Shown here: positions 11,989 to 60,234 of the stretch, one piece after another | How positions within the stretch are numbered: position 1 is the stretch's first letter | How the letters are laid out: each line of letters begins with the position of its first letter | NCBI GenBank assembly: GCA_005400705.1 | Contig: GCA_005400705.1_4079.1 | From: Escherichia coli | GTDB taxonomy: Bacteria > Pseudomonadota > Gammaproteobacteria > Enterobacterales > Enterobacteriaceae | Strand: one strand, 5' to 3' | DNA length: 64,000 nucleotides | The notes under the pieces: generated by a model | Databases searched by the model: none | What the model saw: only the letters and a program-made list of their open reading frames with translations | Told to the model about the DNA's origin: nothing | Position numbers and translations under genes: made by a program

Positions 11989-12180
11989 ATGTTGATTTAT
12001 CAAAGTGAAAATATTCGTGTTATGCAGCATCCCTACTTACAAATCTTTGATGTGCAGCAGTATATGGAAGGTGATGACCCAAGAACCTATGGTCGTAAGT
12101 ATGATTACTTCACTGTAAAGCAGTGTAAAAATATTAACGAAGTACGACAATTAGTTCAAGAACTTCAAAACAAAGGTTGA
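11989..12180 (+). CDS. hypothetical protein
   Basis: 63 aa from internal ATG with RBS aagga. Confidence 0.4.
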   Translation: MLIYQSENIRVMQHPYLQIFDVQQYMEGDDPRTYGRKYDYFTVKQCKNINEVRQLVQELQNKG

Positions 12181-12206
12181 CTTCGGTCAGCCTTTTTTGT
12201 TATAAT
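12175..12206 (+). terminator. fused terminator-promoter: hairpin GGTTGAC-TTCG-GTCAGCC, T-run, TATAAT
   Basis: Hairpin 12175-12192, T6 run, tataat 12201-12206; TTGACT inside stem lies 18 nt upstream of the -10. Confidence 0.65.
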
Positions 12207-12234
12207 TCTCTTAATAAATTAGAGGATTTTAATT

Positions 12235-12675
12235 ATGTATGTATATCGTTTTGAACTTAAATTTAGTTACATTGAACCTAACTTAGATCCTGCACGAACT
12301 GTAGGTCCGTTTGCACGGTATTCAACCAGATACAGTACTAAAAATGGATTTGACCGTTTGCTCATGACTACACCTTCTCAATTCCAACCTGAACCAACTG
12401 AGGATGGGATCTATTCAATCAAAAGTGGATGGGTATTTGGCTGTCAAAGTTTGAAAGATTTGTTCAGATTCTTCACTATGGACTTAGGTAAATTGCATCG
12501 TGCTGGGTTTGCTATATCTGTATATGAAGTTCCAGACCACCATGTAGACATTGGTCGTAATCAGGTTCAGTACTATTGCGGTAGTGCTAAATTAGTTCGT
12601 ATCATGTCAGTTAAGGAAGCAAAGGATGAGTTCCGACAAAGTAAAAGAGAAACAAATGAGGTAATATATGGATAA
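12235..12675 (+). CDS. hypothetical protein
   Basis: 146 aa ORF, RBS agagga. Confidence 0.55.
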   Translation: MYVYRFELKFSYIEPNLDPARTVGPFARYSTRYSTKNGFDRLLMTTPSQFQPEPTEDGIYSIKSGWVFGCQSLKDLFRFFTMDLGKLHRAGFAISVYEVPDHHVDIGRNQVQYYCGSAKLVRIMSVKEAKDEFRQSKRETNEVIYG

Positions 12676-13012
12676 AACTCAAATAGAATTAAAGAAATTT
12701 GTTTCATTCTATCTTCCTGATGACCCACGTAATTCACAAAAAGATATTGAATATTATAATATCCTATCTAAACAGTTAATGAGAAAGTTTCAACAGTGTT
12801 TAACAATATTCAATACAGATGGAAGACGTAGATACCGAATCGTTTCAATGAATGATGAAAACGCAAATTTCTTTGATTACGATGTAGTCTTTAGGGCATA
12901 TAATGATGATCGTATAAAATTAAATTATGATCAAATTATACTTGACCTGAATGTTATATGTGTTATAATTACTCACATAGCCGAACTTAATGGTTTTAAA
13001 GAATGGTATTGA
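12668..13012 (+). CDS. hypothetical protein
   Basis: 114 aa ORF. Confidence 0.5.
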   Translation: MDKTQIELKKFVSFYLPDDPRNSQKDIEYYNILSKQLMRKFQQCLTIFNTDGRRRYRIVSMNDENANFFDYDVVFRAYNDDRIKLNYDQIILDLNVICVIITHIAELNGFKEWY

Positions 13013-13026
13013 ATATAGGATAACAT

Positions 13027-13293
13027 ATGAAGCTTAAATTACAATATAATGGATTTACTTTACGTAATGATACTGAATTTATTAATCGTTCTCCTGGTGC
13101 TGAACTGTTTTTACGAGAGATGAACATTCCTTTCATCATTACTACAGTGGGCGACCGTGAAGTTCTACAATACGCAGAGCATCCGATCATTGATGTTCCT
13201 TGGTACTCTGAGCATATGTACATGGATATGGCACGTCGCTACAACTGTAAGTTCGTAGTTGAAGGTGATAAAATTACAGTCGAATTTAAATAA
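13027..13293 (+). CDS. hypothetical protein
   Basis: 88 aa ORF. Confidence 0.5.
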   Translation: MKLKLQYNGFTLRNDTEFINRSPGAELFLREMNIPFIITTVGDREVLQYAEHPIIDVPWYSEHMYMDMARRYNCKFVVEGDKITVEFK

Positions 13294-13304
13294 GGTAAAT
13301 TAAA

Positions 13305-13598
13305 ATGATCAGTACTTCAGTTAATGAAAGCATCGTCGCTGACGTAGAAATGGTTAAAGAATGTGCAGATGAAACTCTTCGTGATATGTACATTAATGAT
13401 TTAATTACTGAATACGGTAGTCGTGGTGTACACGAATTTATTCGTTTAAGTGGAGAGTTGATGAAAAATCGAATTCGTATGAAGCTTAACGTACATCCAA
13501 AAGCATGGGCATTTACATTAAAATACGCAGAAGATATTGTGAATTTGCGTCGAACTGAAGTATATGAACGTTTGCACAATGGTATGTTAGATAAATGA
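13305..13598 (+). CDS. hypothetical protein
   Basis: 97 aa ORF. Confidence 0.5.
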   Translation: MISTSVNESIVADVEMVKECADETLRDMYINDLITEYGSRGVHEFIRLSGELMKNRIRMKLNVHPKAWAFTLKYAEDIVNLRRTEVYERLHNGMLDK

Positions 13599-13650
13599 TT
13601 GTAAAATAGGAATTCTTAAATGAATTCCTTTTTGTTTATAAGGTATAGTA

Positions 13651-13872
13651 ATGAAATATATAGTACTTGTACTGATATTATTCAGTACTGTTGTAAGTGC
13701 TAAACAAAAAGAATATGTTAAATGTATAAATTATGAAGAGAAATATGTTGAAACATATAAAAAAAGTATAATTAAAAACGTTTCGATTACTAACAGAGCA
13801 ACAATCATTGTACTTAAAAATGGGTTAATTATGCTATATAAACCACACGTTAAATGTGAAATTATTAATTGA
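13651..13872 (+). CDS. secreted small protein
   Basis: 73 aa, signal peptide. Confidence 0.45.
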   Translation: MKYIVLVLILFSTVVSAKQKEYVKCINYEEKYVETYKKSIIKNVSITNRATIIVLKNGLIMLYKPHVKCEIIN

Positions 13873-13879
13873 GGAAATT

Positions 13880-14452
13880 ATGAATCGTAAAGGTCGTTTT
13901 AAAGTATCAAAAAAGAACAAAAGTTCTAGGTTTAAACCTATTGTTTTAACAGTTAAATCTAACAAAGAATTAACTGCACTTAGTAAAAAGATAATTTCAT
14001 CTAAGATTGAAGTATCATACGTAAATTCATTAAAATATATGAATGTCAAACCACTGGACCAACTCATTTCACTTATATTTGAACGTAATGATTTTGAGAT
14101 ATCAGTAGATGATTATAGAGCCTATAATGCTGGTTTCATTAATGTTACTTGTAATAAAAAACTAACTGAGTTGGAAAATTTGTCATGTATAATAAATCTA
14201 GATAAAGGTGTAGTGAAGTACCATTTTGTACATTTCACTAATATCAATAATGGAATGGGTGTACAATCCAGACCTATAGTGCCTACGTGTGATGTTACTA
14301 AATTAGCAAAGCTCAATGATGAAGAATATTTTCAAGAAAGCATTGTAACTGAGCATTTAGATGATATAATAGCTACTTACAAAGAATGCATATGGGTGTT
14401 GAATGCTATAAAACCTAAATTGTGTTTAATGAATATTGTTCGTGATTTATGA
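13880..14452 (+). CDS. hypothetical protein
   Basis: 190 aa from ATG 13880 (RBS gaggaa). Confidence 0.5.
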   Translation: MNRKGRFKVSKKNKSSRFKPIVLTVKSNKELTALSKKIISSKIEVSYVNSLKYMNVKPLDQLISLIFERNDFEISVDDYRAYNAGFINVTCNKKLTELENLSCIINLDKGVVKYHFVHFTNINNGMGVQSRPIVPTCDVTKLAKLNDEEYFQESIVTEHLDDIIATYKECIWVLNAIKPKLCLMNIVRDL

Positions 14453-14465
14453 ATGGGGAATCGTA

Positions 14466-14909
14466 ATGAGTTGGGTAAATGTTAATAGTATTGAACTTAA
14501 CGAACAAGATATTTTTGCATTTGTAAATTTAACTAATAACACAGTACTAAAAGGGCGTTTGTTCAGTGCGAGTGATGGATATAAATGGATCTCTTTGATG
14601 GATGATAGTGGTGTGATTTATAATGTAATGCAATTACCCCAATGGGTATATAGTAACACTGCCGACGATGTTCTTGCCGCAGTTATGCGTGAGTTTGAAA
14701 AACTCCCAGGTGGTGATATCAAAAACAAAGTTTTTAATGCAGAACGGAAAAATTATACAGCACAGCAGTTGGAATCCCTTGCCATTGCTGCTTATCAAGC
14801 TGCTATTAAGAAGCCAGAGTGCGTTATTCTTAAGTATGTACCAGACTTAAAACTTACGTTGGAAGACATGGATGCATTCATTTTTACATCTGAACTTGAT
14901 CAGTACTAA
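14466..14909 (+). CDS. hypothetical protein
   Basis: 147 aa from ATG 14466. Confidence 0.5.
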   Translation: MSWVNVNSIELNEQDIFAFVNLTNNTVLKGRLFSASDGYKWISLMDDSGVIYNVMQLPQWVYSNTADDVLAAVMREFEKLPGGDIKNKVFNAERKNYTAQQLESLAIAAYQAAIKKPECVILKYVPDLKLTLEDMDAFIFTSELDQY

Positions 14910-15024
14910 TTTAACTTTGGGACAACCATTCTTATTATGATATAATGTTTTATGTCATTCGATATAAATGACAACGGAACTATAAATATTATAGTAAAAT
15001 TTATCTCTTATAGGAGTTATAAAA

Positions 15025-15408
15025 ATGGTTGATAAATGGAATAAGAAAGATCCATCACATGATGTTGATATTTCTGGTCTAGACAATGCACATAAGCACA
15101 AGTATCTAGATTCACTAGGTCTTCTAAAACCGGACCAAAGTCTTGCACATGATCGTCCATCCCGTGAAAAAGCATTTAGCCTAGAATCACTAGGTCATGA
15201 GCTTAATCGTGTGTTTGAGGATCACCCAATCTATGTACGTGATATTATCGAGAAACTTAAAGTAACTCCTAAAGAGCACTTTAAAGCAACAGTACACTCT
15301 GCATTCCGTGCATTGCATGATTCTCTCAAGAAAACTCACAATCTTCGTAAAATTCATGATGAAATCGTGAATGCAATCGAAAGTGAAAAACATAAGTTCA
15401 AGAAGTAA
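15025..15408 (+). CDS. hypothetical protein
   Basis: 127 aa, RBS taggag; shares YLDSLGLL motif with 15655 product. Confidence 0.55.
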   Translation: MVDKWNKKDPSHDVDISGLDNAHKHKYLDSLGLLKPDQSLAHDRPSREKAFSLESLGHELNRVFEDHPIYVRDIIEKLKVTPKEHFKATVHSAFRALHDSLKKTHNLRKIHDEIVNAIESEKHKFKK

Positions 15409-15414
15409 TAAAAA

Positions 15415-15448
15415 GGGGTTGACTAAGGTCAGCCCTTTGTTGTATCAT
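15415..15448 (+). terminator. fused terminator-promoter (GGGTTGAC-TAAG-GTCAGCCC)
   Basis: Hairpin 15415-15436, then TTT; candidate -10 tatcat 18 nt after the stem TTGACT. Confidence 0.55.
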
Positions 15449-15477
15449 AACTTCTCAATATAACTGAGGTATCATAT

Positions 15478-15591
15478 ATGCAAGGTTTGAAATTTGTAGT
15501 TGCTGCACTCATCGCCGCAGTACTGGTTGGTGGTGTATTCTATGTAGTGGATCAAAAAGTAAATCCACCTGCACAAGAACAATCTAAGTAA
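15478..15591 (+). CDS. small membrane peptide
   Basis: 37 aa ORF between two terminator hairpins, RBS gaggt, single TM helix. Confidence 0.35.
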   Translation: MQGLKFVVAALIAAVLVGGVFYVVDQKVNPPAQEQSK

Positions 15592-15599
15592 CAAAATAA

Positions 15600-15630
15600 G
15601 GTTGACTTCGGTCAGCCTTTTCTTTATACT
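15600..15630 (+). terminator. fused terminator-promoter (GGTTGAC-TTCG-GTCAGCC)
   Basis: Hairpin 15600-15617, T-run, tatact 15625-15630 (17 nt spacer from stem TTGACT). Confidence 0.6.
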
Positions 15631-15654
15631 ATAAATATAGTCATAGAGAAAAAA

Positions 15655-16932
15655 ATGAAATCTATGGAGAGAAATCAAATGCCAAGTAATTTTACTGATA
15701 AAAATGGTGGTAACATGGCTGGTCACTCTGATAAATGGAGTGAACGCAACCGCCGTCCAAATAGTTATCAAGCAGGTCAAGGTTCACGTGGGTCACGTAA
15801 TCAAGGAACTGGTCTAGCTGGTAAAGCAAACGCAGAAGCAGGTGAAGTTAAGAGTACTGAGAACATGACTGAGCTAGAAAAGCTACGTTATGTTAATTCA
15901 TTGGGACTTCTTAATGCTACACAAAAACAACGTCTAGCTGATATGGAACGTGAAGAAAAAGAAAAATCTGCTCCTGCTAAAGAAGAACCAAAACAAGAAG
16001 CACCAAAGGCGGTTAACCCTGTCAAAGAACTGTCTGATAAGTTAGGTAAGATTTTTGCTAATAAACCACAACTTATCCAAGGTATTGTGAAAGAATTGCA
16101 ATCTGTACCTAAAGAAGAATTAAAAGTCAAAGCACAAGCTGTACTTGATGCAATGAGTGGAAATACCAGTACTGAACCAACTGAAGTATTCAGTACTATA
16201 ATGCGTGCACTTGAAGGTACGCAACAAGGTGATGTGCCTGCACAAGAGGAAGTAAGTCTTGAAAGCGTACTTAAAACATTTGATAGTATTGGTAAAGAAG
16301 ACCGTGCTAATGCTCAACAAGTTAAGAATGTACTAGCTAAGTTAGAAAACCGTCTGGAAGGTAAAGACGATAAGATTAAATTAGTATCTGATGCAGTTAA
16401 CGATGCACTTAAATCTTACGTACAAGGTGAAAAGAGTCGTTTTGTAACTGCAATGGATGCTGCATTCAATACTATGAAAAAGTATGAAGCTGATCACGGT
16501 GAGAAGGTTACACGAGATGGTTATCTGATGCGTGATGATGAAGAAGGTGCAGTAGAACAGAACGATGTTCATTCAGACGAAGAAATTGATGACATGGAAG
16601 CTGAACTGTCACAAGACCGCCAAATGACTGAAAAATCCCATAACGAACTACAGAAATTAATGCAATGGGTTGCAGATGTTGGTGAAAAAGCTGGTGCTGA
16701 TAAGAAGAGTATAAACCGAAATCTTAGTTGGATTAAAGATAAAGTTGGTAACAACGCTCGTAAACTACAAAAAGCGTGGACTGATGTAGTGAATGGTGCT
16801 GTTGACATTGATGTTGAATCCGGTGAGGCATATGATTATGCATTGACTACACTTGATGACTCTTTCCGTGATTACGAAAATGGAAATGTAACTCCTTGGG
16901 AAAAGGACATCATGAGCAAATACGGTAAATGA
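15655..16932 (+). CDS. hypothetical charged (K/E/D-rich) protein
   Basis: 425 aa, largest plus-strand ORF, predicted coiled-coil-like; N-terminal YVNSLGLL motif. Confidence 0.65.
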   Translation: MKSMERNQMPSNFTDKNGGNMAGHSDKWSERNRRPNSYQAGQGSRGSRNQGTGLAGKANAEAGEVKSTENMTELEKLRYVNSLGLLNATQKQRLADMEREEKEKSAPAKEEPKQEAPKAVNPVKELSDKLGKIFANKPQLIQGIVKELQSVPKEELKVKAQAVLDAMSGNTSTEPTEVFSTIMRALEGTQQGDVPAQEEVSLESVLKTFDSIGKEDRANAQQVKNVLAKLENRLEGKDDKIKLVSDAVNDALKSYVQGEKSRFVTAMDAAFNTMKKYEADHGEKVTRDGYLMRDDEEGAVEQNDVHSDEEIDDMEAELSQDRQMTEKSHNELQKLMQWVADVGEKAGADKKSINRNLSWIKDKVGNNARKLQKAWTDVVNGAVDIDVESGEAYDYALTTLDDSFRDYENGNVTPWEKDIMSKYGK

Positions 16933-16942
16933 TAAAACAAAA

Positions 16943-16974
16943 GGTTGACTTCGGTCAGCCTTTTTTTGTAAATA
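16943..16974 (+). terminator. fused terminator-promoter (GGTTGAC-TTCG-GTCAGCC)
   Basis: Hairpin 16943-16960, T7 run, weak -10 taaata. Confidence 0.6.
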
Positions 16975-17003
16975 CAAAAGAGGAATTAAGAAGAGGGATT
17001 ACA

Positions 17004-17255
17004 ATGAAAAAATATATTATATTTGGAATTGTATTATTTTCCAGTACTACTTATGGTGCAGATTATCATTGCTCCGTAGCAAGGCAGGATTTCAGAAATG
17101 GGGAGTTCTATACTACCTCATACACAAAAGGAATAATACACGACACCGACAGAACTATTGGATTTAATGCGTTTGACAACAAAGATTCATATACTTCAGG
17201 TATACTATCTGAGCGTAAGACGGATGTACTCGGAATAGAAAAAGAGTTTCGGTGA
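17004..17255 (+). CDS. secreted small protein
   Basis: 83 aa from ATG 17004 with RBS; signal peptide; ORF-track start 16929 lies in the terminator. Confidence 0.5.
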   Translation: MKKYIIFGIVLFSSTTYGADYHCSVARQDFRNGEFYTTSYTKGIIHDTDRTIGFNAFDNKDSYTSGILSERKTDVLGIEKEFR

Positions 17256-17259
17256 TTCC

Positions 17260-17589
17260 GTGGCAATGTGTAATGACATTGAAAGTACTAAAAAAATTTA
17301 TTATAATAATGAAATAAATTATCGTTTTCATAATTTAACCACAAATAAAAGTTTACTATTTTACAATTGTAAAGAAGTAAAACTCCCACCAGACAATAGC
17401 TGTACTCCAACTAATCAACCCCCAGCACAATGTAATACTCCCTCTGAACCTGATAAAAATAAAAAAGACAAAGATAAAGATAAAAAAGAAGACAAAAAAC
17501 CTTTAAAAGATAAAAAGAAAGATAAAAAACCTAATCCGTTTAAAAATAATAAACCAGCACAACCCGATATGACGTGTAAAATAAAATAA
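17260..17589 (+). CDS. hypothetical protein with K/D-rich low-complexity tail
   Basis: 109 aa; KDKDKDKKEDKKPLKDKKKDKK. Confidence 0.4.
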   Translation: MAMCNDIESTKKIYYNNEINYRFHNLTTNKSLLFYNCKEVKLPPDNSCTPTNQPPAQCNTPSEPDKNKKDKDKDKKEDKKPLKDKKKDKKPNPFKNNKPAQPDMTCKIK

Positions 17590-17598
17590 GGATATAAA

Positions 17599-18018
17599 AT
17601 GAAAAAGATTTTTTTAAGTATTATTTTAGTACTTTTTAGTTTTAATGTATATGCAGCAGATGCTAAACAGGTTGCTAATACAGTAAAAGATGTTATAGTA
17701 GACAATGCTCCTACCTTAGAGGAAATTGGGGTAAAAACTTGTGATATTGTAATATATAATTTAGTTAATGATGAACGAGTTATGTTGAATACGTATGAAC
17801 AAGTAGTCCCATTGGTTGAATCTGGTGCTGCTTTTAGCTTTACATATAAAGTTAAATTAACAGGAGGGGTTGAAGTTAATCTTGACATTGATACCGCTTC
17901 AGTACTAAAAGATAAACTAGGATATGTGTTCAATCGTATTCGTGAAGAAGGTCATCTTAAGTATGTTTATGAAAGTAAAATACTAAAACGTGCAATAGTT
18001 ATAGAAAACTGTAAATGA
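17599..18018 (+). CDS. secreted protein (signal peptide)
   Basis: 139 aa, signal peptide MKKIFLSIILVLFSFNVYA. Confidence 0.55.
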   Translation: MKKIFLSIILVLFSFNVYAADAKQVANTVKDVIVDNAPTLEEIGVKTCDIVIYNLVNDERVMLNTYEQVVPLVESGAAFSFTYKVKLTGGVEVNLDIDTASVLKDKLGYVFNRIREEGHLKYVYESKILKRAIVIENCK

Positions 18019-18026
18019 TAATAAAA

Positions 18027-18059
18027 GGGTTGACTTCGGTCAGCCTTTTTTGTTATGAT
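18027..18059 (+). terminator. fused terminator-promoter (GGGTTGAC-TTCG-GTCAGCC)
   Basis: Hairpin 18027-18045, T6, tatgat 18054-18059. Confidence 0.65.
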
Positions 18060-18087
18060 GTTGATATTAACTACAGAGGATAAAGTA

Positions 18088-18729
18088 ATGACTAAGCAAG
18101 AAATATTCAAAACTTTAATTGACATTTTGCGTCCATCAAAAACTCGTTGTGCGATGGAGTTTGATATTCCTTATGCTGAACGCGTAATCTTTCCACAAGT
18201 TAAAGCTGCTGGACTTACTTTGCTTGGAATGGGGATGTACTCTGTAGTAGTTGAACATAAAAACTATCCTGGGCGTGCATTTAAAGTAACCACTTCACGC
18301 TGGGATGGTTTTCGTGCTTATGCAATGTACTGCATTGAAAACGCAGGAACCAAGTTTCTTCCAGTGATCTACAGTGCAAACGAACAAGGAAACTTTGGAT
18401 GGTATGAGATGGACAAGTACTATCCTATAATTAAACAAAAAAATAATTATGATGACTTTGTTAGTACTAAAATTGGAGATTTATATTCTTATGCACATGC
18501 TGGTCAGTATGCTACTTCAGTGAATGATATGCGTGGAAATTCTGAAGAGATTGCTATTGCGACGGTCGCTGCTAACATCATGAAAGAGTTTCACGGGTGT
18601 TTTGTACCAGACATTCATTCCAGTAATGTCATGATGGATAAAGATGGCAATGTATTCATTACTGATCCTCTTTCGTGTGATGTACGTAGAGAAATACCAG
18701 TTACTGAAGAAGATCCAGTTTTTTATTGA
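18088..18729 (+). CDS. kinase-like (phosphotransferase-fold) protein
   Basis: 213 aa from ATG 18088 (RBS gagga); DIHSSNVMMDKDGNVFITDP resembles the APH/protein-kinase catalytic loop and metal-binding Asp. Confidence 0.45.
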   Translation: MTKQEIFKTLIDILRPSKTRCAMEFDIPYAERVIFPQVKAAGLTLLGMGMYSVVVEHKNYPGRAFKVTTSRWDGFRAYAMYCIENAGTKFLPVIYSANEQGNFGWYEMDKYYPIIKQKNNYDDFVSTKIGDLYSYAHAGQYATSVNDMRGNSEEIAIATVAANIMKEFHGCFVPDIHSSNVMMDKDGNVFITDPLSCDVRREIPVTEEDPVFY

Positions 18730-18791
18730 CAGAACTGATGTAATGAGGTATTCTTAATAAACCATTAAAAAGTGCGGTAAAGGATAAAATC

Positions 18792-53383: not shown

Positions 53384-53412
53384 GTTTTATATCTTAACTG
53401 AGGATAGAAATC

Positions 53413-53769: not shown

Positions 53770-53830
53770 TACTTGCATTTAGTTTTCAGTACTGTTATAG
53801 TACTTGCATCAAGGGGAAACATCTTCCCCT
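53768..53830 (+). promoter_or_regulatory. PeSL-like cassette (degenerate -10)
   Basis: agtacttgcatttagttttcagtactgttatag, hairpin aggggaa-acatc-ttcccct. Confidence 0.45.
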
Positions 53831-53847
53831 ACTAAGAGGAAATAAAA

Positions 53848-54036
53848 ATGGAAAACTTATCAAGTATTTTAGTACAAGATGATTTCGGTAATCCTGGAAG
53901 TGCTATCATTGTTCGGGGTAATAAAGCAACGTTTGTTATTGCTGGTGGACCCGTACAGCGTAGCATTAAAAATAATGCTGTTACCATTAATAATGTACGC
54001 TATCGCTTAGATAAAGAATTGATTCATAAACTGTAA
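53848..54036 (+). CDS. hypothetical protein
   Basis: 62 aa, RBS agagga. Confidence 0.5.
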   Translation: MENLSSILVQDDFGNPGSAIIVRGNKATFVIAGGPVQRSIKNNAVTINNVRYRLDKELIHKL

Positions 54037-54044
54037 AAAAGTAC

Positions 54045-54104
54045 TGGACAATAGATTATAGTACTGTATAATAAGTTACATGAAGGGGAGAAATGATTCT
54101 CCCC
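54045..54104 (+). promoter_or_regulatory. PeSL-like cassette
   Basis: tggaca-16-tataat (54067-54072), hairpin ggggagaaatgattctcccc. Confidence 0.55.
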
Positions 54105-54122
54105 AGTACTGAGGAAAGAAAA

Positions 54123-54335
54123 ATGCAAGGTCAACTAATCGTTCGTAAATGGTCTGATACTAACGCTAAACCGTGGGATGTACAATACATCGGCCCCAAT
54201 GGTGAATCCAGATATCAACCAGGTGTAACGCATAGTACTGAGCAATTCGCCGCCGCTCATCGTGAACGTCTGTTACAATCAATGCAGCAAGGTTCCGGTG
54301 AAAAATTCATTCAGGATCATTGGCTGAAAGATTAA
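54123..54335 (+). CDS. hypothetical protein
   Basis: 70 aa from ATG 54123, RBS gagga. Confidence 0.55.
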   Translation: MQGQLIVRKWSDTNAKPWDVQYIGPNGESRYQPGVTHSTEQFAAAHRERLLQSMQQGSGEKFIQDHWLKD

Positions 54336-54336
54336 A

Positions 54337-54400
54337 AAGTACTTGCACAGTACTGAATAAAGTGTATAATGTTTTATATCGAGAGGGGAATAGTTCCCCT
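54337..54400 (+). promoter_or_regulatory. PeSL-like cassette
   Basis: aaagtacttgcacagtactgaataaagtgtataat, hairpin gaggggaa-tag-ttcccctc. Confidence 0.6.
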
Positions 54401-54421
54401 CCTAACAAAAAGGAAAGTATA

Positions 54422-54595
54422 ATGATCCAAGTAGAATTATCAGTACTGAAAGATCTATTTTATCGGTTAGGTACTAATGGCGAGTATCCTAAAAGTGATA
54501 CCGCAAAACTTTTTGTATCACTCGACTTATGGCAACGCGAACAATTAGTAATGTCGTGGCGTAAAGGTAAAGCAGATCGCGAGGTGAAAGCATGA
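54422..54595 (+). CDS. small protein
   Basis: 57 aa from ATG 54422, RBS aaggaaag. Confidence 0.45.
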   Translation: MIQVELSVLKDLFYRLGTNGEYPKSDTAKLFVSLDLWQREQLVMSWRKGKADREVKA

Positions 54596-54741
54596 AAGAA
54601 TTCTTATTTGAAGTAGTGTTTCAAGGTGTCGGTAATAACCAACTGATTCGATCAAGTGGTTATAATGTTAACCAGGCATGGAATAACATTAAACAAATGT
54701 ACCCTAACGCTATCACCTATCGCAACCCGAAAGAAGTTTAA
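54592..54741 (+). CDS. small protein
   Basis: 49 aa, ATGA overlap. Confidence 0.35.
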   Translation: MKEFLFEVVFQGVGNNQLIRSSGYNVNQAWNNIKQMYPNAITYRNPKEV

Positions 54742-54755
54742 AAATAATTGAAAAA

Positions 54756-54789
54756 GGGATTGACTCCGGTCAGTCCCTTTGCTATTATA
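54756..54789 (+). terminator. fused terminator-promoter (GGGATTGAC-TCCG-GTCAGTCCC)
   Basis: Hairpin 54756-54777, TTT, tattat 54784-54789. Confidence 0.6.
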
Positions 54790-54873
54790 TACGCATAGAA
54801 ACAAATCAGCCCACCGGGTGCATAAATGTATCTATTGTTTGCTGGTGGCTAGTACTGAAAACTATTTTTAAAA

Positions 54874-54906
54874 AGTACTTGCATTGTACTTAGAATCAAG
54901 TATAAT
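54874..54906 (+). promoter_or_regulatory. PeSL-type promoter driving the structured element
   Basis: aaagtacttgcattgtacttagaatcaagtataat. Confidence 0.55.
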
Positions 54907-54990
54907 GTTTTACATCAGGACGGGGAACGAAATAAGTAACTTCCCGTTAAGTAGCCCAGGAGTAAGGCACACGAAAAACTCCCCTGATAA
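54907..54990 (+). ncRNA. candidate structured small RNA, copy B
   Basis: Sequence identical to 45066-45150. Confidence 0.35.
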
Positions 54991-54996
54991 AATAGT

Positions 54997-55024
54997 TTGA
55001 CAATAGAAAGTAAACGAGTATAAT
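54997..55024 (+). promoter_or_regulatory. sigma70-type promoter TTGACA-16-TATAAT
   Basis: ttgaca 54997-55002, tataat 55019-55024. Confidence 0.55.
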
Positions 55025-55057
55025 ACTTACATCAACCACTGATAAGGAAACATTAAA

Positions 55058-55333
55058 ATGCGGATTCTACTGACAGCTAACGAAATCGAACAAGTACTGA
55101 CTACTAACCTGGAACAATGGAAACGTGATGCAGATATCCAGGCGGTTCAATGGCTTAACGATAAGTTAACGCCGGATGACTTAAGCAAGATTGTAGATCC
55201 TCAATTCTACGAAGATATCCACGACACCGCGTTAAGCGTCGAGGATGTACTTGATAAGCACTACATTGATACTGATTTACAGGTTTACGGTCGTAAAAAC
55301 TTTATCACTATCCACGACATTTACAATAATTAA
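55058..55333 (+). CDS. hypothetical acidic protein
   Basis: 91 aa, RBS aaggaaa. Confidence 0.55.
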   Translation: MRILLTANEIEQVLTTNLEQWKRDADIQAVQWLNDKLTPDDLSKIVDPQFYEDIHDTALSVEDVLDKHYIDTDLQVYGRKNFITIHDIYNN

Positions 55334-55336
55334 GTA

Positions 55337-55398
55337 TTGACAAAGTATCTTAGTACTGTATAATAGTTTACATCAAGTGAGGGGAAACGGTTCCCCTC
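55337..55398 (+). promoter_or_regulatory. PeSL-like cassette
   Basis: ttgaca-16-tataat (55359-55364), hairpin gaggggaaacggttcccctc. Confidence 0.6.
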
Positions 55399-55419
55399 CT
55401 AACAAAGAGAGAAATAAAA

Positions 55420-55743
55420 ATGGCTATGATCCTTACCCAGAAAGTAGAACTGAAAATTGTAACCTCCTTTGACATTAAAGTTAATCGCTGGACTGATCGG
55501 AACGGCAATACTTACCACTCTTGCTACGTGTCTGCATTGATTGGTGATCGTTGGGAAGACCTGGGACACGAAACTTTTACATACGGTTACGGTACGCAAG
55601 GCGAATACACGGGCTTGGAGATCATTAAAGAAACCGTTATAGGTTTCAACCCGAAAGAAAAAGTTATTCACCGCATCGAAAAAGAGATTAACAAAGAAAT
55701 AACAGTTCGCTACTACGATGTAAAACGTAAGAAAGACATGTAA
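55420..55743 (+). CDS. hypothetical protein (paralog of 49451 product)
   Basis: 107 aa, RBS agagag. Confidence 0.55.
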   Translation: MAMILTQKVELKIVTSFDIKVNRWTDRNGNTYHSCYVSALIGDRWEDLGHETFTYGYGTQGEYTGLEIIKETVIGFNPKEKVIHRIEKEINKEITVRYYDVKRKKDM

Positions 55744-55758
55744 TAGAATCCATTTAAA

Positions 55759-55794
55759 GTACTATTTGACATTACACAGATAGTACTTTATAAT
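55759..55794 (+). promoter_or_regulatory. promoter with palindrome AGTACTAT...ATAGTACT
   Basis: ttgaca 55766-55771 inside the palindrome, tataat 55789-55794. Confidence 0.5.
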
Positions 55795-55838
55795 AGACTC
55801 TAGCTTGTAGTACTAACTTAACTAATAGGATGTATACC

Positions 55839-56234
55839 ATGATTACTAAATTCTACGCTACCCGTGAAGCTGCCCGTATTGTTGCACGCGAGGAAGGAGC
55901 AGCATTTAAAGACATGGGCAAAGATGCACCGAAAGGCCAACGCTGGGCCGTACAGTTCAAAGAGATCTCTGATATTGTGAATTCACCGGAGCCAGTACTG
56001 ACAGCAGCAGAACAGAAGAAAGCTGATGAACTGTCAGCAGTTCTTAACGCTCAAGATGACTTTATCGCGGGTTCTGATATTAAAGTTTCCGTAAATTCGA
56101 ATGCATGGACTCACGCGGATCATCTGGCTAACTTGAAGCGTCCAAGTGTACTGATTCGCAACCAACGAGAGATCCGCCACGACCGCAAGGGAAACAGTGT
56201 TACTGTATTCAGTAAACGCCGCCAGGTTATCTAA
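55839..56234 (+). CDS. hypothetical protein (paralog of 44207 product)
   Basis: 131 aa from ATG 55839, RBS agga. Confidence 0.55.
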   Translation: MITKFYATREAARIVAREEGAAFKDMGKDAPKGQRWAVQFKEISDIVNSPEPVLTAAEQKKADELSAVLNAQDDFIAGSDIKVSVNSNAWTHADHLANLKRPSVLIRNQREIRHDRKGNSVTVFSKRRQVI

Positions 56235-56255
56235 TAACTTGCAGTACTAACAACA

Positions 56256-56290
56256 CGGCGGGTTCAGTTCCCGCCTTTTTTTTATAGGAT
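56256..56290 (+). terminator. intrinsic terminator
   Basis: ggcggg-ttcagtt-cccgcc then T9. Confidence 0.7.
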
Positions 56291-56298
56291 AAACTAAA

Positions 56299-56553
56299 AT
56301 GATGAAGGTACAACTATCTAAAGATAATATCTTGCGGGTACACTATAAAGCACCACAGAGAATCATCACAAAGGCCGTACAGCTTGCTAATGAGTTTATT
56401 AATGGTAGTCTATTACCCAGGAAGTTAAGCAACGGGAAACTACGTGTTATCGATGTAGACACTAACAATAGAATAGTAATTGAGAGTACTGGAAAAATTA
56501 ATCTATATGAACACCAACAATACAATAAAAAAATAAAACTAATATCACGTTGA
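56299..56553 (+). CDS. hypothetical protein
   Basis: 84 aa. Confidence 0.5.
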   Translation: MMKVQLSKDNILRVHYKAPQRIITKAVQLANEFINGSLLPRKLSNGKLRVIDVDTNNRIVIESTGKINLYEHQQYNKKIKLISR

Positions 56554-56578
56554 CAGTACTCAATTGTTTTAGTATTAT
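56550..56578 (+). promoter_or_regulatory. promoter TTGACA-17-TATTAT
   Basis: Near-identical to the 56826 promoter and leader. Confidence 0.5.
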
Positions 56579-56606
56579 GTACACATACCAACACGGGAGA
56601 AACAAA

Positions 56607-56825
56607 ATGAAATTATCTAAAATCGAAAAGAAAACTATTGATGAAGCAGTTAAGCACGGTTATACCTTTCGTAATGATTCACATTTTACCAATTTTCAAC
56701 AAGGGTATCGTACTATTAAAAAACTAATTGACAAAGGTTTATTAGTTGAAGTCAATAACGGCAATGGCATTGAGTATCAACCAACACAGGACGCATTTTA
56801 TTTTAAGAAATATAATATTATCTAA
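56607..56825 (+). CDS. hypothetical protein
   Basis: 72 aa from ATG 56607, RBS gggaga. Confidence 0.5.
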   Translation: MKLSKIEKKTIDEAVKHGYTFRNDSHFTNFQQGYRTIKKLIDKGLLVEVNNGNGIEYQPTQDAFYFKKYNII

Positions 56826-56854
56826 TTGACAGTACTCAAATGTTTTAGTACTAT
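56826..56854 (+). promoter_or_regulatory. promoter TTGACA-17-TACTAT
   Basis: Duplicate of the 56550 cassette. Confidence 0.5.
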
Positions 56855-56883
56855 ATGTACATACCAACACGGGGAAAAACAAA

Positions 56884-57126
56884 ATGATTACTTTAGAAAA
56901 ACGTATCAAAGAAACTACATCGCTGGTGGAACTGTTAACAGTACTGAAATGTAAAACAACACCATTCAGCACGCCGGACTTTATTAATATGGTTGATGTT
57001 AATGGTCGCTATCGCATCACGGTCGAACAAGGAGCGGCGAAAGTATTCAGTACTAAAAACACCAAGGAAGTGATCCACGCCGTTAATGTTAAAAAAGTAG
57101 TTGCCATTGATAGTAAAGTACTGTAA
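56884..57126 (+). CDS. hypothetical protein
   Basis: 80 aa. Confidence 0.5.
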   Translation: MITLEKRIKETTSLVELLTVLKCKTTPFSTPDFINMVDVNGRYRITVEQGAAKVFSTKNTKEVIHAVNVKKVVAIDSKVL

Positions 57127-57157
57127 TATAGTTTCATTAACTCAAGGAGAACATGCA

Positions 57158-57742
57158 ATGCGTAATTATACTAAATTCATCCGTACACTGTCAGAAATGG
57201 AAACCAACAAAGAGATCCTTTCAGCTTGTCGGTTAGCTGGCCTGGAGATCATCGGTGCTGGTTCTTCCCGTATAGTATTCGCTTTAAATGATCGGTTAGT
57301 GATTAAGGTCGCGAATTGTGATGCGGGTGTAGAACAAAATGAAACTGAATGTAAGGTATGGAATTTTTTAGACTATGACCGCCCTCAGTTGAAACAGTAC
57401 TTTGCAAAGGTGCATATGCATTTATGCGATCCTGATAATATGTTTATCGTTATGGATCGGTTGAGTACTGCAAGCAAAGGCAGTGTGAAGCACGTTAACG
57501 CGTGCAATGAATTAAAGTACAATATTAAACGTAATGCCATTGAACGCCAGCACCGCTTTGCTGATGCACTACAACACGTTGATGATACCTTATCAACACT
57601 AACTATAAGAGATATCAGAAAACAGAATATCGGCCAGGATCGCAACGGCTTGATTAAAGTACTTGATTACGGTTTAACCCGCAATATCTGGAATCAGTAC
57701 TATAAAAAGCGTGATGTAAAAGCCGTAACTATAACACGATAA
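57158..57742 (+). CDS. protein kinase-like protein
   Basis: 194 aa from ATG 57158 (RBS aaggaga); Gly-rich IGAGSSRIVF, Lys in VIKVA, RDIRKQNIG (HRD-like), VLDYGL (DFG-like). Confidence 0.5.
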   Translation: MRNYTKFIRTLSEMETNKEILSACRLAGLEIIGAGSSRIVFALNDRLVIKVANCDAGVEQNETECKVWNFLDYDRPQLKQYFAKVHMHLCDPDNMFIVMDRLSTASKGSVKHVNACNELKYNIKRNAIERQHRFADALQHVDDTLSTLTIRDIRKQNIGQDRNGLIKVLDYGLTRNIWNQYYKKRDVKAVTITR

Positions 57743-57756
57743 AAAAGATTAAAAAA

Positions 57757-57790
57757 GGGATTGACTCCGGTCAGTCCCTTTGCTATTATA
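57757..57790 (+). terminator. fused terminator-promoter (GGGATTGAC-TCCG-GTCAGTCCC)
   Basis: Hairpin 57757-57778, TTT, tattat 57785-57790. Confidence 0.6.
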
Positions 57791-57871
57791 TATGCATGAA
57801 AACAATCTAACCCACCGGGTGCATAAATGTATCTATTATATAAGTATTCAGTACTGAAAACTATTTTTAAA

Positions 57872-57937
57872 AAGTACTTGCATACTATCTCAATTCGCGT
57901 ATAATGTTTTATATCGAGAGGGGGAAATGGTTCTCCC
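57872..57937 (+). promoter_or_regulatory. PeSL-like cassette
   Basis: aaagtacttgcatactatctcaattcgcgtataat, hairpin ggggaa-atgg-ttctcc. Confidence 0.6.
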
Positions 57938-57959
57938 TGGTACATTAAGGAATAAAATC

Positions 57960-58367
57960 ATGACTACTACCAATCAAGCTCGGAACATCACCAACGATAA
58001 AAATCATGCTGCAATGGTCGCTGGATACATTGAAGCTATGCAATTCAGTACTGTATACAATGAGAACGGCGATTACCTGGAAGATTATGAATTATCAGAG
58101 CAAGCCCATCAAGCGGCAGTGATTGCATGTTCACGTTTCCTTGCTGTACATGGTGAAGATATGGAAACAGTACAAAAACACCATAATCCTGATTATACTT
58201 ATAATCATGCAGGTCATGATCTCTTTCTTACTCGCGAAGGTCACGGCACTGGCTTTTGGGATCGTGATATCGGTCACTATGACGATGTATTCACTAAGTA
58301 CTGCGAAGAAATCAACGTTTGCGATCCCTATGTAGGCGATGATAATCTAATCTATATGGGCGAATAA
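57960..58367 (+). CDS. hypothetical His-rich protein
   Basis: 135 aa from ATG 57960, RBS aaggaa. Confidence 0.55.
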   Translation: MTTTNQARNITNDKNHAAMVAGYIEAMQFSTVYNENGDYLEDYELSEQAHQAAVIACSRFLAVHGEDMETVQKHHNPDYTYNHAGHDLFLTREGHGTGFWDRDIGHYDDVFTKYCEEINVCDPYVGDDNLIYMGE

Positions 58368-58373
58368 AAGTAT

Positions 58374-58432
58374 TTGACAAAGTATATCAGTACTGTATAA
58401 TAGTTTACATCAAGGGGAGAATAGTTCTCCCC
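58374..58432 (+). promoter_or_regulatory. PeSL-like cassette
   Basis: ttgaca-16-tataat (58396-58401), hairpin ggggagaa-tag-ttctcccc. Confidence 0.6.
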
Positions 58433-58456
58433 ACACCAATAAAAGGAAACAAAATT

Positions 58457-58729
58457 ATGTCCAGCTACTCCGCTACTATGATCATTAAAGATATGAACGG
58501 TAATCCTACTTCTGCTGGTGGATCATTTGGAAATATTAACTTAGATGGGCGGTTATCCATGCAATCAGCCATTGATGCAGCGAAAGAAGTTTTTAAGAAT
58601 GAATGTACTGTAAGTAAGCTGGATTATATGGGATTCGCTATCGAGAAAACTAATCGTTTTGTGAACTACAAAAATCCACTGATGATCGATACTAACCTGA
58701 AAGCAAACGAAGTGGAATACTTATTATGA
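58457..58729 (+). CDS. hypothetical protein
   Basis: 90 aa, RBS aaaggaaa. Confidence 0.55.
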   Translation: MSSYSATMIIKDMNGNPTSAGGSFGNINLDGRLSMQSAIDAAKEVFKNECTVSKLDYMGFAIEKTNRFVNYKNPLMIDTNLKANEVEYLL

Positions 58730-58917
58730 CAGTTGAAGAAGTTAAAAAAGTACTGGCAGTACTACGCTATCATAATCATTGTAAGGTGAAGAATGATCCT
58801 GATTATGTTGATTCATCCCTGGAGGAAGACACCTTAAACGCGATAAGCCATATGCAAACATTAGCAAAGCGTATGACCGAAAAGAATAGGCCGGACTATA
58901 TCGGAAATAAAATTTAA
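58726..58917 (+). CDS. hypothetical protein
   Basis: 63 aa, ATGA overlap. Confidence 0.45.
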   Translation: MTVEEVKKVLAVLRYHNHCKVKNDPDYVDSSLEEDTLNAISHMQTLAKRMTEKNRPDYIGNKI

Positions 58918-58986
58918 AAAGTACTTGCATTGTAGTTAGATTAACGTATAATGTTTTATATCGAGAGGGGGAAATGGTTTCCCCTC
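58918..58986 (+). promoter_or_regulatory. PeSL-like cassette
   Basis: aaagtacttgcattgtagttagattaacgtataat, hairpin gagggggaaa-tgg-tttcccctc. Confidence 0.6.
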
Positions 58987-59004
58987 AAGTCCAGGAGATA
59001 CACC

Positions 59005-59268
59005 ATGAACGCTATTGAAATCACTATCAATGCACACGTATACGACAACGTAGTACTGCAAACTACTATGACCGCTAACGATACCAGTACTTTGCGGAAT
59101 ACTGTTATTAGTGCTGTATGTGCCGCTATCGGTGATGTCGCCCTGGAAAATGCAAAACACGTAAACGATGGTTTCACTATGTGCAAACGTGATAACGCAA
59201 AACATATCATCGTAGAAGGTTACGGCGGTGTAGAATATAATGTTTATATGAAAAAAGTACTTGCATAG
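59005..59268 (+). CDS. hypothetical protein
   Basis: 87 aa from ATG 59005, RBS aggaga. Confidence 0.55.
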   Translation: MNAIEITINAHVYDNVVLQTTMTANDTSTLRNTVISAVCAAIGDVALENAKHVNDGFTMCKRDNAKHIIVEGYGGVEYNVYMKKVLA

Positions 59269-59318
59269 TACTGAATAAAGCGTATAATGTTTTGCATAGG
59301 GGGAGATATCCTCCCCCA
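59265..59318 (+). promoter_or_regulatory. PeSL-like cassette
   Basis: aaagtacttgcatagtactgaataaagcgtataat, hairpin gggggag-atatc-ctccccc. Confidence 0.6.
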
Positions 59319-59335
59319 CTAAAAGGAGTATTAAA

Positions 59336-59560
59336 ATGGCTAACTTTGATGAACTGATGCGGGAAGTAGCTAACCTGGCAGAAGAGAAGAAATCATTCGA
59401 TTCTATCTATAACACCGCTCACCGTGATTCAGTACTGGCATGTAACCAGGATCAAAAAGATGAACTAATCGCCACATATCATGAAGCATGGAAGTACTAC
59501 CGACAATGGGAGAAAGAAGAAAGCGAGTCTACCATCGAAGGTATCAATAATCTAATCTAA
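59336..59560 (+). CDS. hypothetical protein
   Basis: 74 aa, RBS aaggag. Confidence 0.55.
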   Translation: MANFDELMREVANLAEEKKSFDSIYNTAHRDSVLACNQDQKDELIATYHEAWKYYRQWEKEESESTIEGINNLI

Positions 59561-59579
59561 AAGTTTTATTTCAGTACTA

Positions 59580-59608
59580 TTGACATAGCTTGATAGTACT
59601 GATATGAT
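59580..59608 (+). promoter_or_regulatory. promoter TTGACA-17-TATGAT (AGTACTG class)
   Basis: ttgaca 59580-59585. Confidence 0.45.
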
Positions 59609-59635
59609 AACTTTACTAACTAAAGGGGAAACATA

Positions 59636-59893
59636 ATGGAACAGTTCACACAATATCGGGTAAATCCAATTGCTACAGCCTACGTAGAAGACCATAAAAC
59701 GTTACCAGTACTGCAACCAGTTAAAGGCCGTATCTATCGTGGCCTTGCCTGGGATACGGCCCAGGATGGATATAAAACCGTCGCCGTGGGGATGTATTGC
59801 GGGAATGGTGAATGGTTTGATCCTAACAATCCGATTGCACTTGACAGTACTGAAAAAATGAAATGGTCCGACTACATCGAAGATATTTCATAA
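59636..59893 (+). CDS. hypothetical protein
   Basis: 85 aa, RBS aagggga. Confidence 0.55.
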   Translation: MEQFTQYRVNPIATAYVEDHKTLPVLQPVKGRIYRGLAWDTAQDGYKTVAVGMYCGNGEWFDPNNPIALDSTEKMKWSDYIEDIS

Positions 59894-59900
59894 AAACTAT

Positions 59901-59961
59901 TTGACAGTACTAACCAGTAATGTATAATGTTTTACATAGAGCGGGGGAATAGTTCTCCCGC
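59901..59961 (+). promoter_or_regulatory. PeSL-like cassette
   Basis: ttgaca-16-tataat (59923-59928), hairpin gcgggggaa-tag-ttctcccgc. Confidence 0.6.
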
Positions 59962-59983
59962 CAATAGTTTGGAGTAAAACATT

Positions 59984-60184
59984 ATGTCTATCGCTATCGC
60001 CCTGGTTGAAGTACTGAAAGAAGCTAAAGCCAACCTTATCGATGTACAGATTAAGGAATTGCAAAACGGCTTAATCGGCTGTACTTGTACCGCTGGTGGA
60101 GCGGCAGACTATCGAGAACACGAATCACTCGAATCACTGGTTCGGTATCTTACCATGATCGTTGATGATTGGAGAATCATCTAA
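59984..60184 (+). CDS. hypothetical protein
   Basis: 66 aa, RBS ggag. Confidence 0.5.
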   Translation: MSIAIALVEVLKEAKANLIDVQIKELQNGLIGCTCTAGGAADYREHESLESLVRYLTMIVDDWRII

Positions 60185-60201
60185 CAAAAAAGAATAAAAA
60201 A

Positions 60202-60234
60202 GGGATTGACTCAGGTCAGTCCCTTTGCTATTAT
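60202..60234 (+). terminator. fused terminator-promoter (GGGATTGAC-TCAG-GTCAGTCCC)
   Basis: Hairpin 60202-60223, TTT, tattat 60229-60234. Confidence 0.6.

Follow-up and report, generated by a model that had tools for sequence, protein, structure and literature searches.

The 64,000-nucleotide (nt) stretch of DNA that we analyzed (contig GCA_005400705.1_4079.1 of the Escherichia coli assembly GCA_005400705.1; hereafter the window) is derived from an Asteriusvirus jumbo coliphage of the PBECO4/121Q/SP27 type, related to phage RaK2, and contains ten short elements built around the same hairpin. In all but one of them, this terminator-like hairpin and a sigma-70-type promoter sequence share bases, such that a stop signal and a start signal overlap within about 35 bases. 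Judged by this anatomy, the elements are PeSLs (“promoter-early stem-loop”), a design already published for T4-type phages; what is new is therefore the group of phages that hosts them and not the kind of element or the principle. We consider it likely that the elements act as PeSL-type stop-and-restart cassettes that also provide homology for recombination. This view is built on the anatomy of the elements, the strand asymmetry of their folds, the statistics with which hairpin and promoter co-occur, their distribution among phages, and the positions of breakpoints between close relatives.

Ten hairpin elements with an embedded −35 motif

The initial annotation of the window had listed ten such hairpins, and all of them are present, without exception on the plus strand (Table 1). 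From 5′ to 3′, an element consists of an A-run of 2–7 nt, a G clamp (GG, GGG, GGGG, GTGG, or GGGA), TTGAC, a loop of 4 nt, GTCAG (GTCGG in one element), the complementary C clamp, a T-run of 3–7 nt, and, usually, TGn and a −10 hexamer. The G/C-clamped stem comprises 7–9 base pairs (bp), its 5′ arm carries the −35 motif TTGAC, and the four bases of the loop are TTCG in four elements, TCCG in three, and TAAG, TTAG, and TCAG in the others. The complete −35 hexamer, TTGACT, is formed by the final five bases of the 5′ arm together with the first base of the loop, and the promoter spacer is made up of the 3′ arm and the T-run. A −10-like hexamer with five or six matches out of six follows TTGACT at a distance of 17–18 nt in nine of the ten elements, and a TGn extension precedes it in seven. 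The annotation had assigned TATAAT or TATTAT to every element. This is correct for six, with TATAAT at 12175 only and TATTAT at 22953, 51372, 54756, 57757, and 60202; the elements at 15415, 15600, and 18027 carry TATCAT, TATACT, and TATGAT, respectively, and the one at 16943 has TAAATA/TGTAAA and no sigma-70 −10 hexamer. The accompanying description as a compact bifunctional element is borne out by sequence and comparison for eight copies, is ambiguous for 15600, and does not apply to 16943, where a terminator is combined with a late-type motif.

The repetition is far beyond chance. The core TTGACTYCGGTCA, with at most one mismatch, occurs eight times as compared to 0.10 times expected from dinucleotide shuffles, and none of 100 shuffles reached eight. 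A relaxed scan for TTGAC-N3–8-GTC(A/G) returned these ten elements plus one unrelated promoter hairpin at 44821 and nothing else. When folded as RNA, all ten yield free energies between −12.4 and −19.5 kcal/mol with z scores from −4.6 to −6.4, values not equaled by any of 200 shuffles.

The elements fall into two groups, six at 12175–22953 (block 1) and four at 51372–60202 (block 2), and these do lie in compositionally different surroundings as originally proposed, with a GC content of about 32–38% at 10–24 kb as compared to about 36–40% at 42–62 kb. All ten are co-oriented with the genes and start 6–17 nt past the upstream stop codon. In block 1, the stop codon is located 6–10 nt ahead of the element or inside it, and an ATG preceded by a Shine–Dalgarno sequence follows 25–31 nt after the −10 hexamer. 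In block 2, the stop codon lies 7–17 nt upstream, and the next open reading frame (ORF) is 138–196 nt away: behind the element promoter comes a leader that is conserved but non-coding (AGCCCACNGGGTGCATAAGTGTATC...), and a second promoter lies about 120 nt further on. Self-comparison of the window revealed that only the cassette itself is repeated, from −24 to +33 in block 1 and from −20 to +210 in block 2, with unrelated flanking ORFs. A tandem 3-kb gene duplication behind the four copies at 51–60 kb was considered as well and is ruled out by self-BLAST, as the repeat is confined to −20 to +210.

Table 1. Positions and organization of the ten elements and of CCAGTACT-stem hairpins on the minus strand
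Feature	Position	Strand	Organization	Spacer (bp)	Remarks
Element 1 (12175)	12172–12206	+	AAA-GGTTGAC-TTCG-GTCAGCC-T6, TGt-TATAAT	18	RNA −13.9 kcal/mol, z −5.0
Element 2 (15415)	15413–15448	+	AA-GGGGTTGAC-TAAG-GTCAGCCC-TTT, TATCAT	18	no TG; −17.0 kcal/mol, z −5.2
Element 3 (15600)	15598–15637	+	AA-GGTTGAC-TTCG-GTCAGCC-TTTT, TATACT (15625–15630)	17	
Element 4 (16943)	16939–16974	+	AAAA-GGTTGAC-TTCG-GTCAGCC-T7, GTAAATA (16968–16974)		no sigma-70 −10
Element 5 (18027)	18023–18059	+	AAAA-GGGTTGAC-TTCG-GTCAGCC-T6, TGt-TATGAT	18	
Element 6 (22953)	22949–22984	+	AAAA-GGGTTGAC-TTAG-GTCGGCCC-TTTT, TGc-TATTAT	17	two U·G wobbles
Element 7 (51372)	51367–51402	+	AAA-GTGGTTGAC-TCCG-GTCAGCCAT-TTT, TGc-TATTAT	17	
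Element 8 (54756)	54753–54788	+	AAA-GGGATTGAC-TCCG-GTCAGTCCC-TTT, TGc-TATTAT	17	repeated cassette 54739–54927
Element 9 (57757)	57754–57789	+	sequence type as element 8		cassette 57740–57966
Element 10 (60202)	60199–60234	+	AAA-GGGATTGAC-TCAG-GTCAGTCCC-TTT, TGc-TATTAT	17	cassette 60186–60287; second promoter 60348–60376
CCAGTACT-stem hairpins	~34976, 33762, 32511, 28935, 27674, 27469, 26323	−			

The hairpin is probably conserved as an RNA structure

In every one of the ten elements, the first T of TTGAC is engaged in a U·G wobble pair, and the same holds for 96 of the 118 distinct family copies gathered from the window and from fetched loci. On the bottom strand, this position would be a C·A mismatch, and because of this conserved wobble the plus-strand RNA is the stronger fold, by 3.7–10.5 kcal/mol. 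Throughout the family, the loop belongs to the UNCG or GNRA class of tetraloops (TTCG 61, TCCG 9, and also GAAA, GCGA, GAGA, GTAA, and GCAA). The outer pairs of the stem undergo double changes, with pair 1 switching from G-C to A-T (97 vs. 7) and pair 3 occurring as G-C, A-T, G-T, or T-A; these counts were obtained with a custom script from copies that are related and do not represent independent events. Within the window, the GGGA-type clamp adds an A-T pair to the stem, and element 7 has a compensatory change, T-A in the outer stem where others have G-C.

As an alternative, the TTGAC/GTCA inverted repeat could serve as a DNA operator for a dimeric regulator of phage or host, in which case the RNA hairpin would be irrelevant. 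The repeat indeed overlaps the −35 region, a classic operator position, and another palindrome, AGTACT, is extremely abundant in the genome, both within promoters and near them. However, as DNA the repeat is conservedly imperfect, with T·G when one strand is folded and C·A when the other is, its loops vary only within stable RNA tetraloop classes, and its outer stem pairs co-vary. Moreover, a T-run always follows and an A-run always precedes it, and the same sequence recurs in phages whose hosts are unrelated, one of them Gram-positive. We regard an operator as highly improbable. A role as a DNA cruciform was also considered; the conserved T·G mismatch and the tetraloop classes argue against it.

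A scan with an intrinsic-terminator consensus picked the elements at 12175, 15600, 22953, 51372, 54756, 57757, and 60202, and a second scan picked all ten. Orthologous hairpins have been called terminators by ARNOLD in the record of phage G17, element 1 included, and in phage CBB. The U-tract is strong in block 1 (T4–T7, with T3 in element 2) and weak in block 2 (T3 followed by GCTATTAT). In the window as a whole, about 60 strong sigma-70-like promoters lie on the plus strand, many with 12 of 12 matches, as do only about 21 terminator-like hairpins, ten of which are of the TTGAC type.

Promoter and hairpin appear to be under joint constraint

The promoter half was assessed on copies from IMG/VR that had been chosen by the 18-nt hairpin core alone (53 distinct copies). 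A −10 hexamer with at least five of six matches is present at 16–18 nt in 41 of the 53 (77%), as compared to 0–3 copies (0–6%) at five control offsets, and 36 of the 53 have the TGn extension. Including the upstream A-run, the family consensus is aaaaAAaGGGTTGAC. Furthermore, the lengths of the 3′ arm and the T-run are inversely related: an arm of 7 goes with T6, one of 8 with T4–5, and one of 9 with T3 (r = −0.55, n = 89). This trade-off is what a promoter spacer fixed at 17–18 bp predicts, as such a spacer caps the sum of 3′ arm and T-run at about 12–13 nt and a stronger stem is paid for with U-tract; it would not be predicted for a free-standing terminator. In the block 2 copies, the longest stems leave only three T directly after the stem, and these copies are thus probably attenuators rather than full stops.

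This result also bears on the view that the hairpins are nothing but terminators, or structures protecting 3′ ends, and that they resemble −35 and −10 motifs only because their context is A/T-rich and the copies share a common descent. In genome annotations and in the CBB paper, such sites are listed as terminators only, the element at 16943 is a hairpin without a sigma-70 −10 hexamer, and the statistics are not fully independent in a family of related copies. This view is nevertheless very unlikely in light of the correctly spaced −10 hexamers and TGn extensions in copies that had been selected for the hairpin, the arm length/T-run trade-off, and the block 1 arrangement with Shine–Dalgarno sequence and start codon at a fixed short distance. 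In addition, the 5′ arm invariably reads TTGAC, and other terminators in the window have unrelated stems.

Two elements connect the hairpin to late-type motifs. In element 3, TATAAATA (15630–15637), which corresponds to the T4-type late promoter consensus, overlaps TATACT; the gene downstream encodes a virion structural protein of 425 amino acids (15655–16932, phrog_20398), and another TATAAATA lies ahead of the structural gene at 15025. In element 4, which is conserved in 121Q and G17 and followed by an ORF at 17004–17255, the T-run leads into TGTAAATAC, a motif also found behind the CCAGTACT-stem terminators of the minus strand at 32511 and 33762. Because the elements at 16943 and, in part, 15600 carry late-type motifs, the hairpin half appears as a terminator module that can be joined to different start signals.

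A corresponding arrangement exists on the minus strand, where the region 26300–37400 holds an array of ORFs of similar size, about 370–420 amino acids. Several of these ORFs are followed by hairpins with a CCAGTACT stem, a T-run, and a late-type TAAATA motif (e.g., TTTTTTGTAAATAC and GTATTAAATATAG). These hairpins are the terminator plus late-promoter counterpart of the ten elements.

The genes downstream of the ten elements are mostly of unknown function, with the structural protein gene behind element 3 and a gene for a T7 gp0.7-like protein kinase behind element 5 (18088–18729, phrog_15752, E 1.5e-90) as exceptions. In element 1, the TGA stop codon of the upstream ORF (11935/11989–12180) sits within TTGAC, and the downstream ORF begins at 12235. 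Element 2 is located between a gene for a virion structural protein (15025–15408) and an ORF of 37 amino acids (15478–15591). The repeated cassette of element 7 extends from 51352 to 51581 and holds the non-coding leader and the second promoter (51496–51523).

Relation to PeSLs and other known systems

PeSLs were introduced for phages RB49 and phi1 as intergenic units in which a strong sigma-70 promoter is combined with an AT-rich tract upstream and with a stem-loop that proved to be an effective terminator in lacZ fusions; five subclasses were distinguished by the position of the stem-loop, and in one of them it overlaps the −35 region (Arbiol et al. 2010; PMC2839356). The concept was later extended to T4/PST and KVP40/nt-1, with a stem-loop of the form A3–4 G3-loop-C3 T3–4 and a promoter TTGYVH-N17-TAWWAT in Vibrio phage nt-1 (Comeau et al. 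2014; PMC4122927). Our scan of nt-1 returned AAAAGGGTTGACAGATGTCAGCCCTTTTTTGTATCAT and relatives, which carry the −35 motif within the hairpin and are located between genes of the 51–56 kb PeSL region. It is because this published PeSL phage shows the same anatomy that we assign the elements described here to the PeSLs.

The likeness extends from the combination of a sigma-70-like promoter, an AT-rich tract, and a terminator- or attenuator-like stem-loop, which in block 1 ends in the Shine–Dalgarno sequence and start codon of the next gene, to the presence of many copies in plastic regions, where they separate small genes whose function is mostly unknown, and to the indel or replacement breakpoints between close relatives at the cassettes. 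There are also differences. The phage is a RaK2-like jumbo phage and not a T4-type phage (Straboviridae); promoter and terminator activity are predicted from sequence here, whereas they were demonstrated with lacZ for the original PeSLs; in four copies, a second promoter and a conserved leader that is non-coding separate the element from the next gene; and two copies join the hairpin to late-type motifs. A literature search revealed no description of PeSLs for Asteriusvirus or RaK2-like phages. The Sharanji and RaK2 papers contain no text on promoters or terminators, the promoter in the N1M2 paper is phiKZ/OBP-like and unrelated, and the CBB paper has GGGTTGACTTCGGTCAGCCC sites in its terminator table only and not among its 18 RpoD-like promoters.

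A second class of composite motif in the window is found at 44821–44849, 49389–49417, 52242–52270, and 59580–59608, and also at 55755–55794 and 44133. Here, the −35 hexamer and the spacer are covered by a hairpin of 12–14 bp that is built on CAGTACT/AGTACTG arms and has a free energy of −13 to −21 kcal/mol; no T-run follows, and the promoters have TGn-CATAAT or TATAAT. This class matches the PeSL subclass whose stem-loop is placed between −35 and −10.

Phage T4 reportedly carries C(UUCG)G hairpins between cistrons and in intrinsic terminators. These share with the present elements a very stable, C-G-closed UNCG tetraloop and a location between phage genes, yet an embedded −35 motif with a −10 hexamer at a fixed distance is not known to be among their defining features. 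The morons of lambdoid phages, each a gene with a promoter and terminator of its own, are likewise comparable as autonomous transcription units between genes, particularly with regard to the element plus denV cassette of 121Q described below. However, the regulatory sequences of morons do not form conserved repeats, nor is mobility attributed to them (PMC2839356), whereas here the repeated unit is the regulatory cassette itself.

Distribution of the element among phages

The assignment of the window to an Asteriusvirus is based on its 11–19 kb stretch, which shares 99% identity with Escherichia phage SP27 and 96–99% identity with PBECO4, 121Q, G17, and JP4, all of them RaK2-related Asteriusvirus jumbo myoviruses of about 350 kb. 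At 50–62 kb, the same phages match piecemeal, with about 46–62% coverage in 5–12 pieces of 89–94% identity.

The initial annotation had suggested searching related genomes for the same element of about 40 nt, and this search was successful: the 43-nt consensus retrieved 567 places in 167 GenBank phage records, with 2–9 places per RaK2-like genome. Carriers include the RaK2-like jumbo phages (Asteriusvirus, RaK2, K64-1, GAP32, CBB, and relatives infecting Serratia, Erwinia, Yersinia, and Salmonella), KVP40-like Vibrio phages, T4 relatives resembling Aeromonas phage 65, and myoviruses of about 150 kb from Pectobacterium, Cronobacter, and Enterobacter. An identical 18-nt core along with the same A-run, T-run, and −10 hexamer occurs in Brochothrix phage A9 (loci L024 and L030), a phage of a Gram-positive host, as well as in Aeromonas phage 65 (L028) and Vibrio phage VH7D (L036). 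One sub-family additionally shares the transcribed leader TATTAT-ATCTAC-ATCGAAACGA; it comprises the element at 22953 and copies from other RaK2-like contigs and from Vibrio phage nt-1. The near-identical cassette of 36–40 nt, in this sub-family together with the leader ATCGAAACGA, could conceivably move horizontally between unrelated large virulent myoviruses including Brochothrix phage A9, or the likeness may have arisen by convergence. The element also occurs in an IMG/VR lineage with contigs of 118–162 kb (L003, L010, L017, and L022), for which no match was found among GenBank phages.

Breakpoints between related phages often coincide with promoter cassettes

Comparison of the window with SP27, 121Q, and JP4 yielded 46 ends of indels or replacements. 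Of these, 29 had a strong promoter cassette no more than 60 nt away, as compared to 8.6 expected at random (29 reached in 0 of 2000 trials). Many of the flanking alignments overlap by 55–107 nt, as is characteristic of an inserted gene with a repeated cassette at either side. At the element at 22953, homology to JP4 ends; a copy of the element is present in 121Q as well, with a different gene behind it. Relative to both SP27 and 121Q, a gene has been replaced next to the 57757 cassette (ORF 57927–58367 in the window), and the left breakpoint of this replacement falls on the right end of the cassette. At window position ~22520, 121Q has an insertion of about 890 bp (L027:11869–12762) that starts with a TTGAC-hairpin element and encodes endonuclease V (denV), and at the same junction JP4 has an insertion of 1275 bp (L042:17225–18501) with genes for an HNH endonuclease and endonuclease V and a copy of the element at L042:17644. 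Both insertions are placed between a stop codon and the promoter at 22524 and are absent from the window.

The 37-amino-acid ORF at 15478–15591, which is annotated in G17, JP4, and 121Q, lies between the elements at 15415 and 15600, 185 bp apart. Flanked by two elements (15413–15637), it is a candidate substrate for a PeSL-type excision as a mini-circle.

A proposed one-way stop-and-restart module

Taking these lines of evidence together, we propose that the cassette would function as a one-way “stop and restart” module between genes. In the plus-strand transcript, the UNCG-type hairpin and the U-rich tract would end or attenuate the RNA of the upstream gene. At the level of DNA, these bases would also constitute a sigma-70-type promoter, with the A-run as an UP-like element, TTGACT as the −35 hexamer, the 3′ arm and the T-run as a spacer of 17–18 bp, and TGn-TATNAT as an extended −10, and a new RNA would start about 7 nt past the −10 hexamer. 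The outcome in block 1 would be leaders of about 20 nt with a Shine–Dalgarno sequence, and in block 2 the conserved non-coding leader followed by the second promoter. The hairpin half would be an independent module that is joined to late-type motifs at 16943 and partly at 15600, and the repeated cassettes of 35–230 bp could supply homology for the insertion, loss, or swap of genes between related phages. We infer from the sequence that transcription really terminates and initiates at these sites, served by either the host sigma-70 or an RpoD-like factor of the phage, and the recombination mechanism and the timing are likewise putative.

Several observations weigh against this proposal or narrow its reach. 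The T-run directly after the stem comprises only three T in block 2 (UUUGCUAUUAU), and termination may be weak there. The element at 16943 is devoid of a sigma-70 −10 hexamer, and the −10 hexamer at 15600 may be incidental to the overlapping late-type TATAAATA. With a second promoter within about 120 nt, the block 2 elements may account for only part of the expression of the downstream genes. As to recombination, most breakpoints fall at other, hairpin-less promoter cassettes and not at the ten elements, some of the events are common to SP27 and 121Q, and the control consisted of random positions, while indels generally favor intergenic sites. A search of the literature for transcript 5′ or 3′ ends or RNA-seq data from Asteriusvirus found none.

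The initial annotation had suggested that hairpin formation in the RNA, or the state of the DNA, could couple termination to re-initiation. In such a coupled hand-over, which would be compatible with our proposal, RNA polymerase would let go of its transcript in the T-run while already positioned on the spacer and −10 hexamer of the fused promoter and would re-initiate there without leaving the DNA, so that the transcript is reset and polymerase flux is kept. Release site and promoter coincide by construction, and single-molecule work has shown that E. coli RNA polymerase usually stays on the DNA after intrinsic termination and can restart (10.1101/663534). The U·G wobble would also fit, as it removes a mirror TTGAC from the bottom strand and would be in line with selection against antisense restarts. 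On the other hand, the restarts in that study were mostly antisense (10.1101/663534), no sequence feature demands coupling, and the published PeSL assays took promoter and terminator activities separately (PMC2839356). Furthermore, the hairpin occurs with a non-sigma-70 motif at 16943 and promoter classes occur without hairpins, and because both are found, the two halves appear as separable modules. A coupled hand-over is unlikely in our view, and we are equally doubtful about its extended form, in which the terminated polymerase would be handed to the fused promoter and restart in the forward direction, with the wobble (GTCAGCC instead of GTCAACC) erasing a mirror −35 and suppressing antisense restarts.

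If the elements are indeed stop-and-restart cassettes, this has consequences for the annotation of jumbo phages, in which hairpins labeled only as “terminator”, as in the G17 record and the terminator table of the CBB paper, very probably act as strong early promoters as well and thereby delimit transcription units. The PeSL concept, published for T4-type phages, would be widened to include RaK2-like jumbo phages and several further large myoviruses, and a quantitative design rule would be added, namely that the 17–18 bp spacer caps 3′ arm plus T-run at about 12–13 nt. The cassettes would also represent ready-made, compact insulator-plus-promoter parts for synthetic biology, albeit not a new principle.

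Further motifs and structures in the window

No tRNAs were found in the window, and a search of the whole window with Rfam covariance models at the gathering threshold gave no matches. Downstream of the 44821 promoter and driven by it, a hairpin of about 100 nt (44858–44958, −39.5 kcal/mol) is formed by the arms AGCCCATAGGGTGC and GCACCCGGTGGGTT; only its 5′ half is present after the block 2 elements (51425–51450, 54808–54835, 57810–57835, and 60255–60280). The hairpin, which is without an Rfam match, may represent a small structured RNA or a leader. Short intact AGCCCACC...GGTGGGCT terminators are located at 47918 and 48648.

The minus strand at 42700–47000, a block otherwise oriented on the plus strand, contains four sigma-70 promoters with 11–12 of 12 matches and −35 hexamers at 42721, 43062, 44993, and 46930, which suggests antisense or small divergent transcripts. 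The promoter at 44993 (12 of 12 matches) points into the 44858–44958 hairpin.

The palindrome AGTACT occurs 299 times in the whole window as compared to about 22 times expected, the next most common palindromic hexamer being found 82 times, and CAGTACTG occurs 74 times as compared to about 0.9 expected; a literature search for the latter motif returned nothing relevant. AGTACT sites (e.g., 6107, 20771, 42211–42244, 44835, and 58388) are placed in promoter spacers (CAGTACTGTATAAT), upstream of −35 hexamers (GTACTTGCAA), in terminator stems, and in ORFs without frame preference. The enrichment is shared by SP27, 121Q, and JP4 and is not seen in the loci from nt-1, VH7D, Aeromonas phage 65, and A9.

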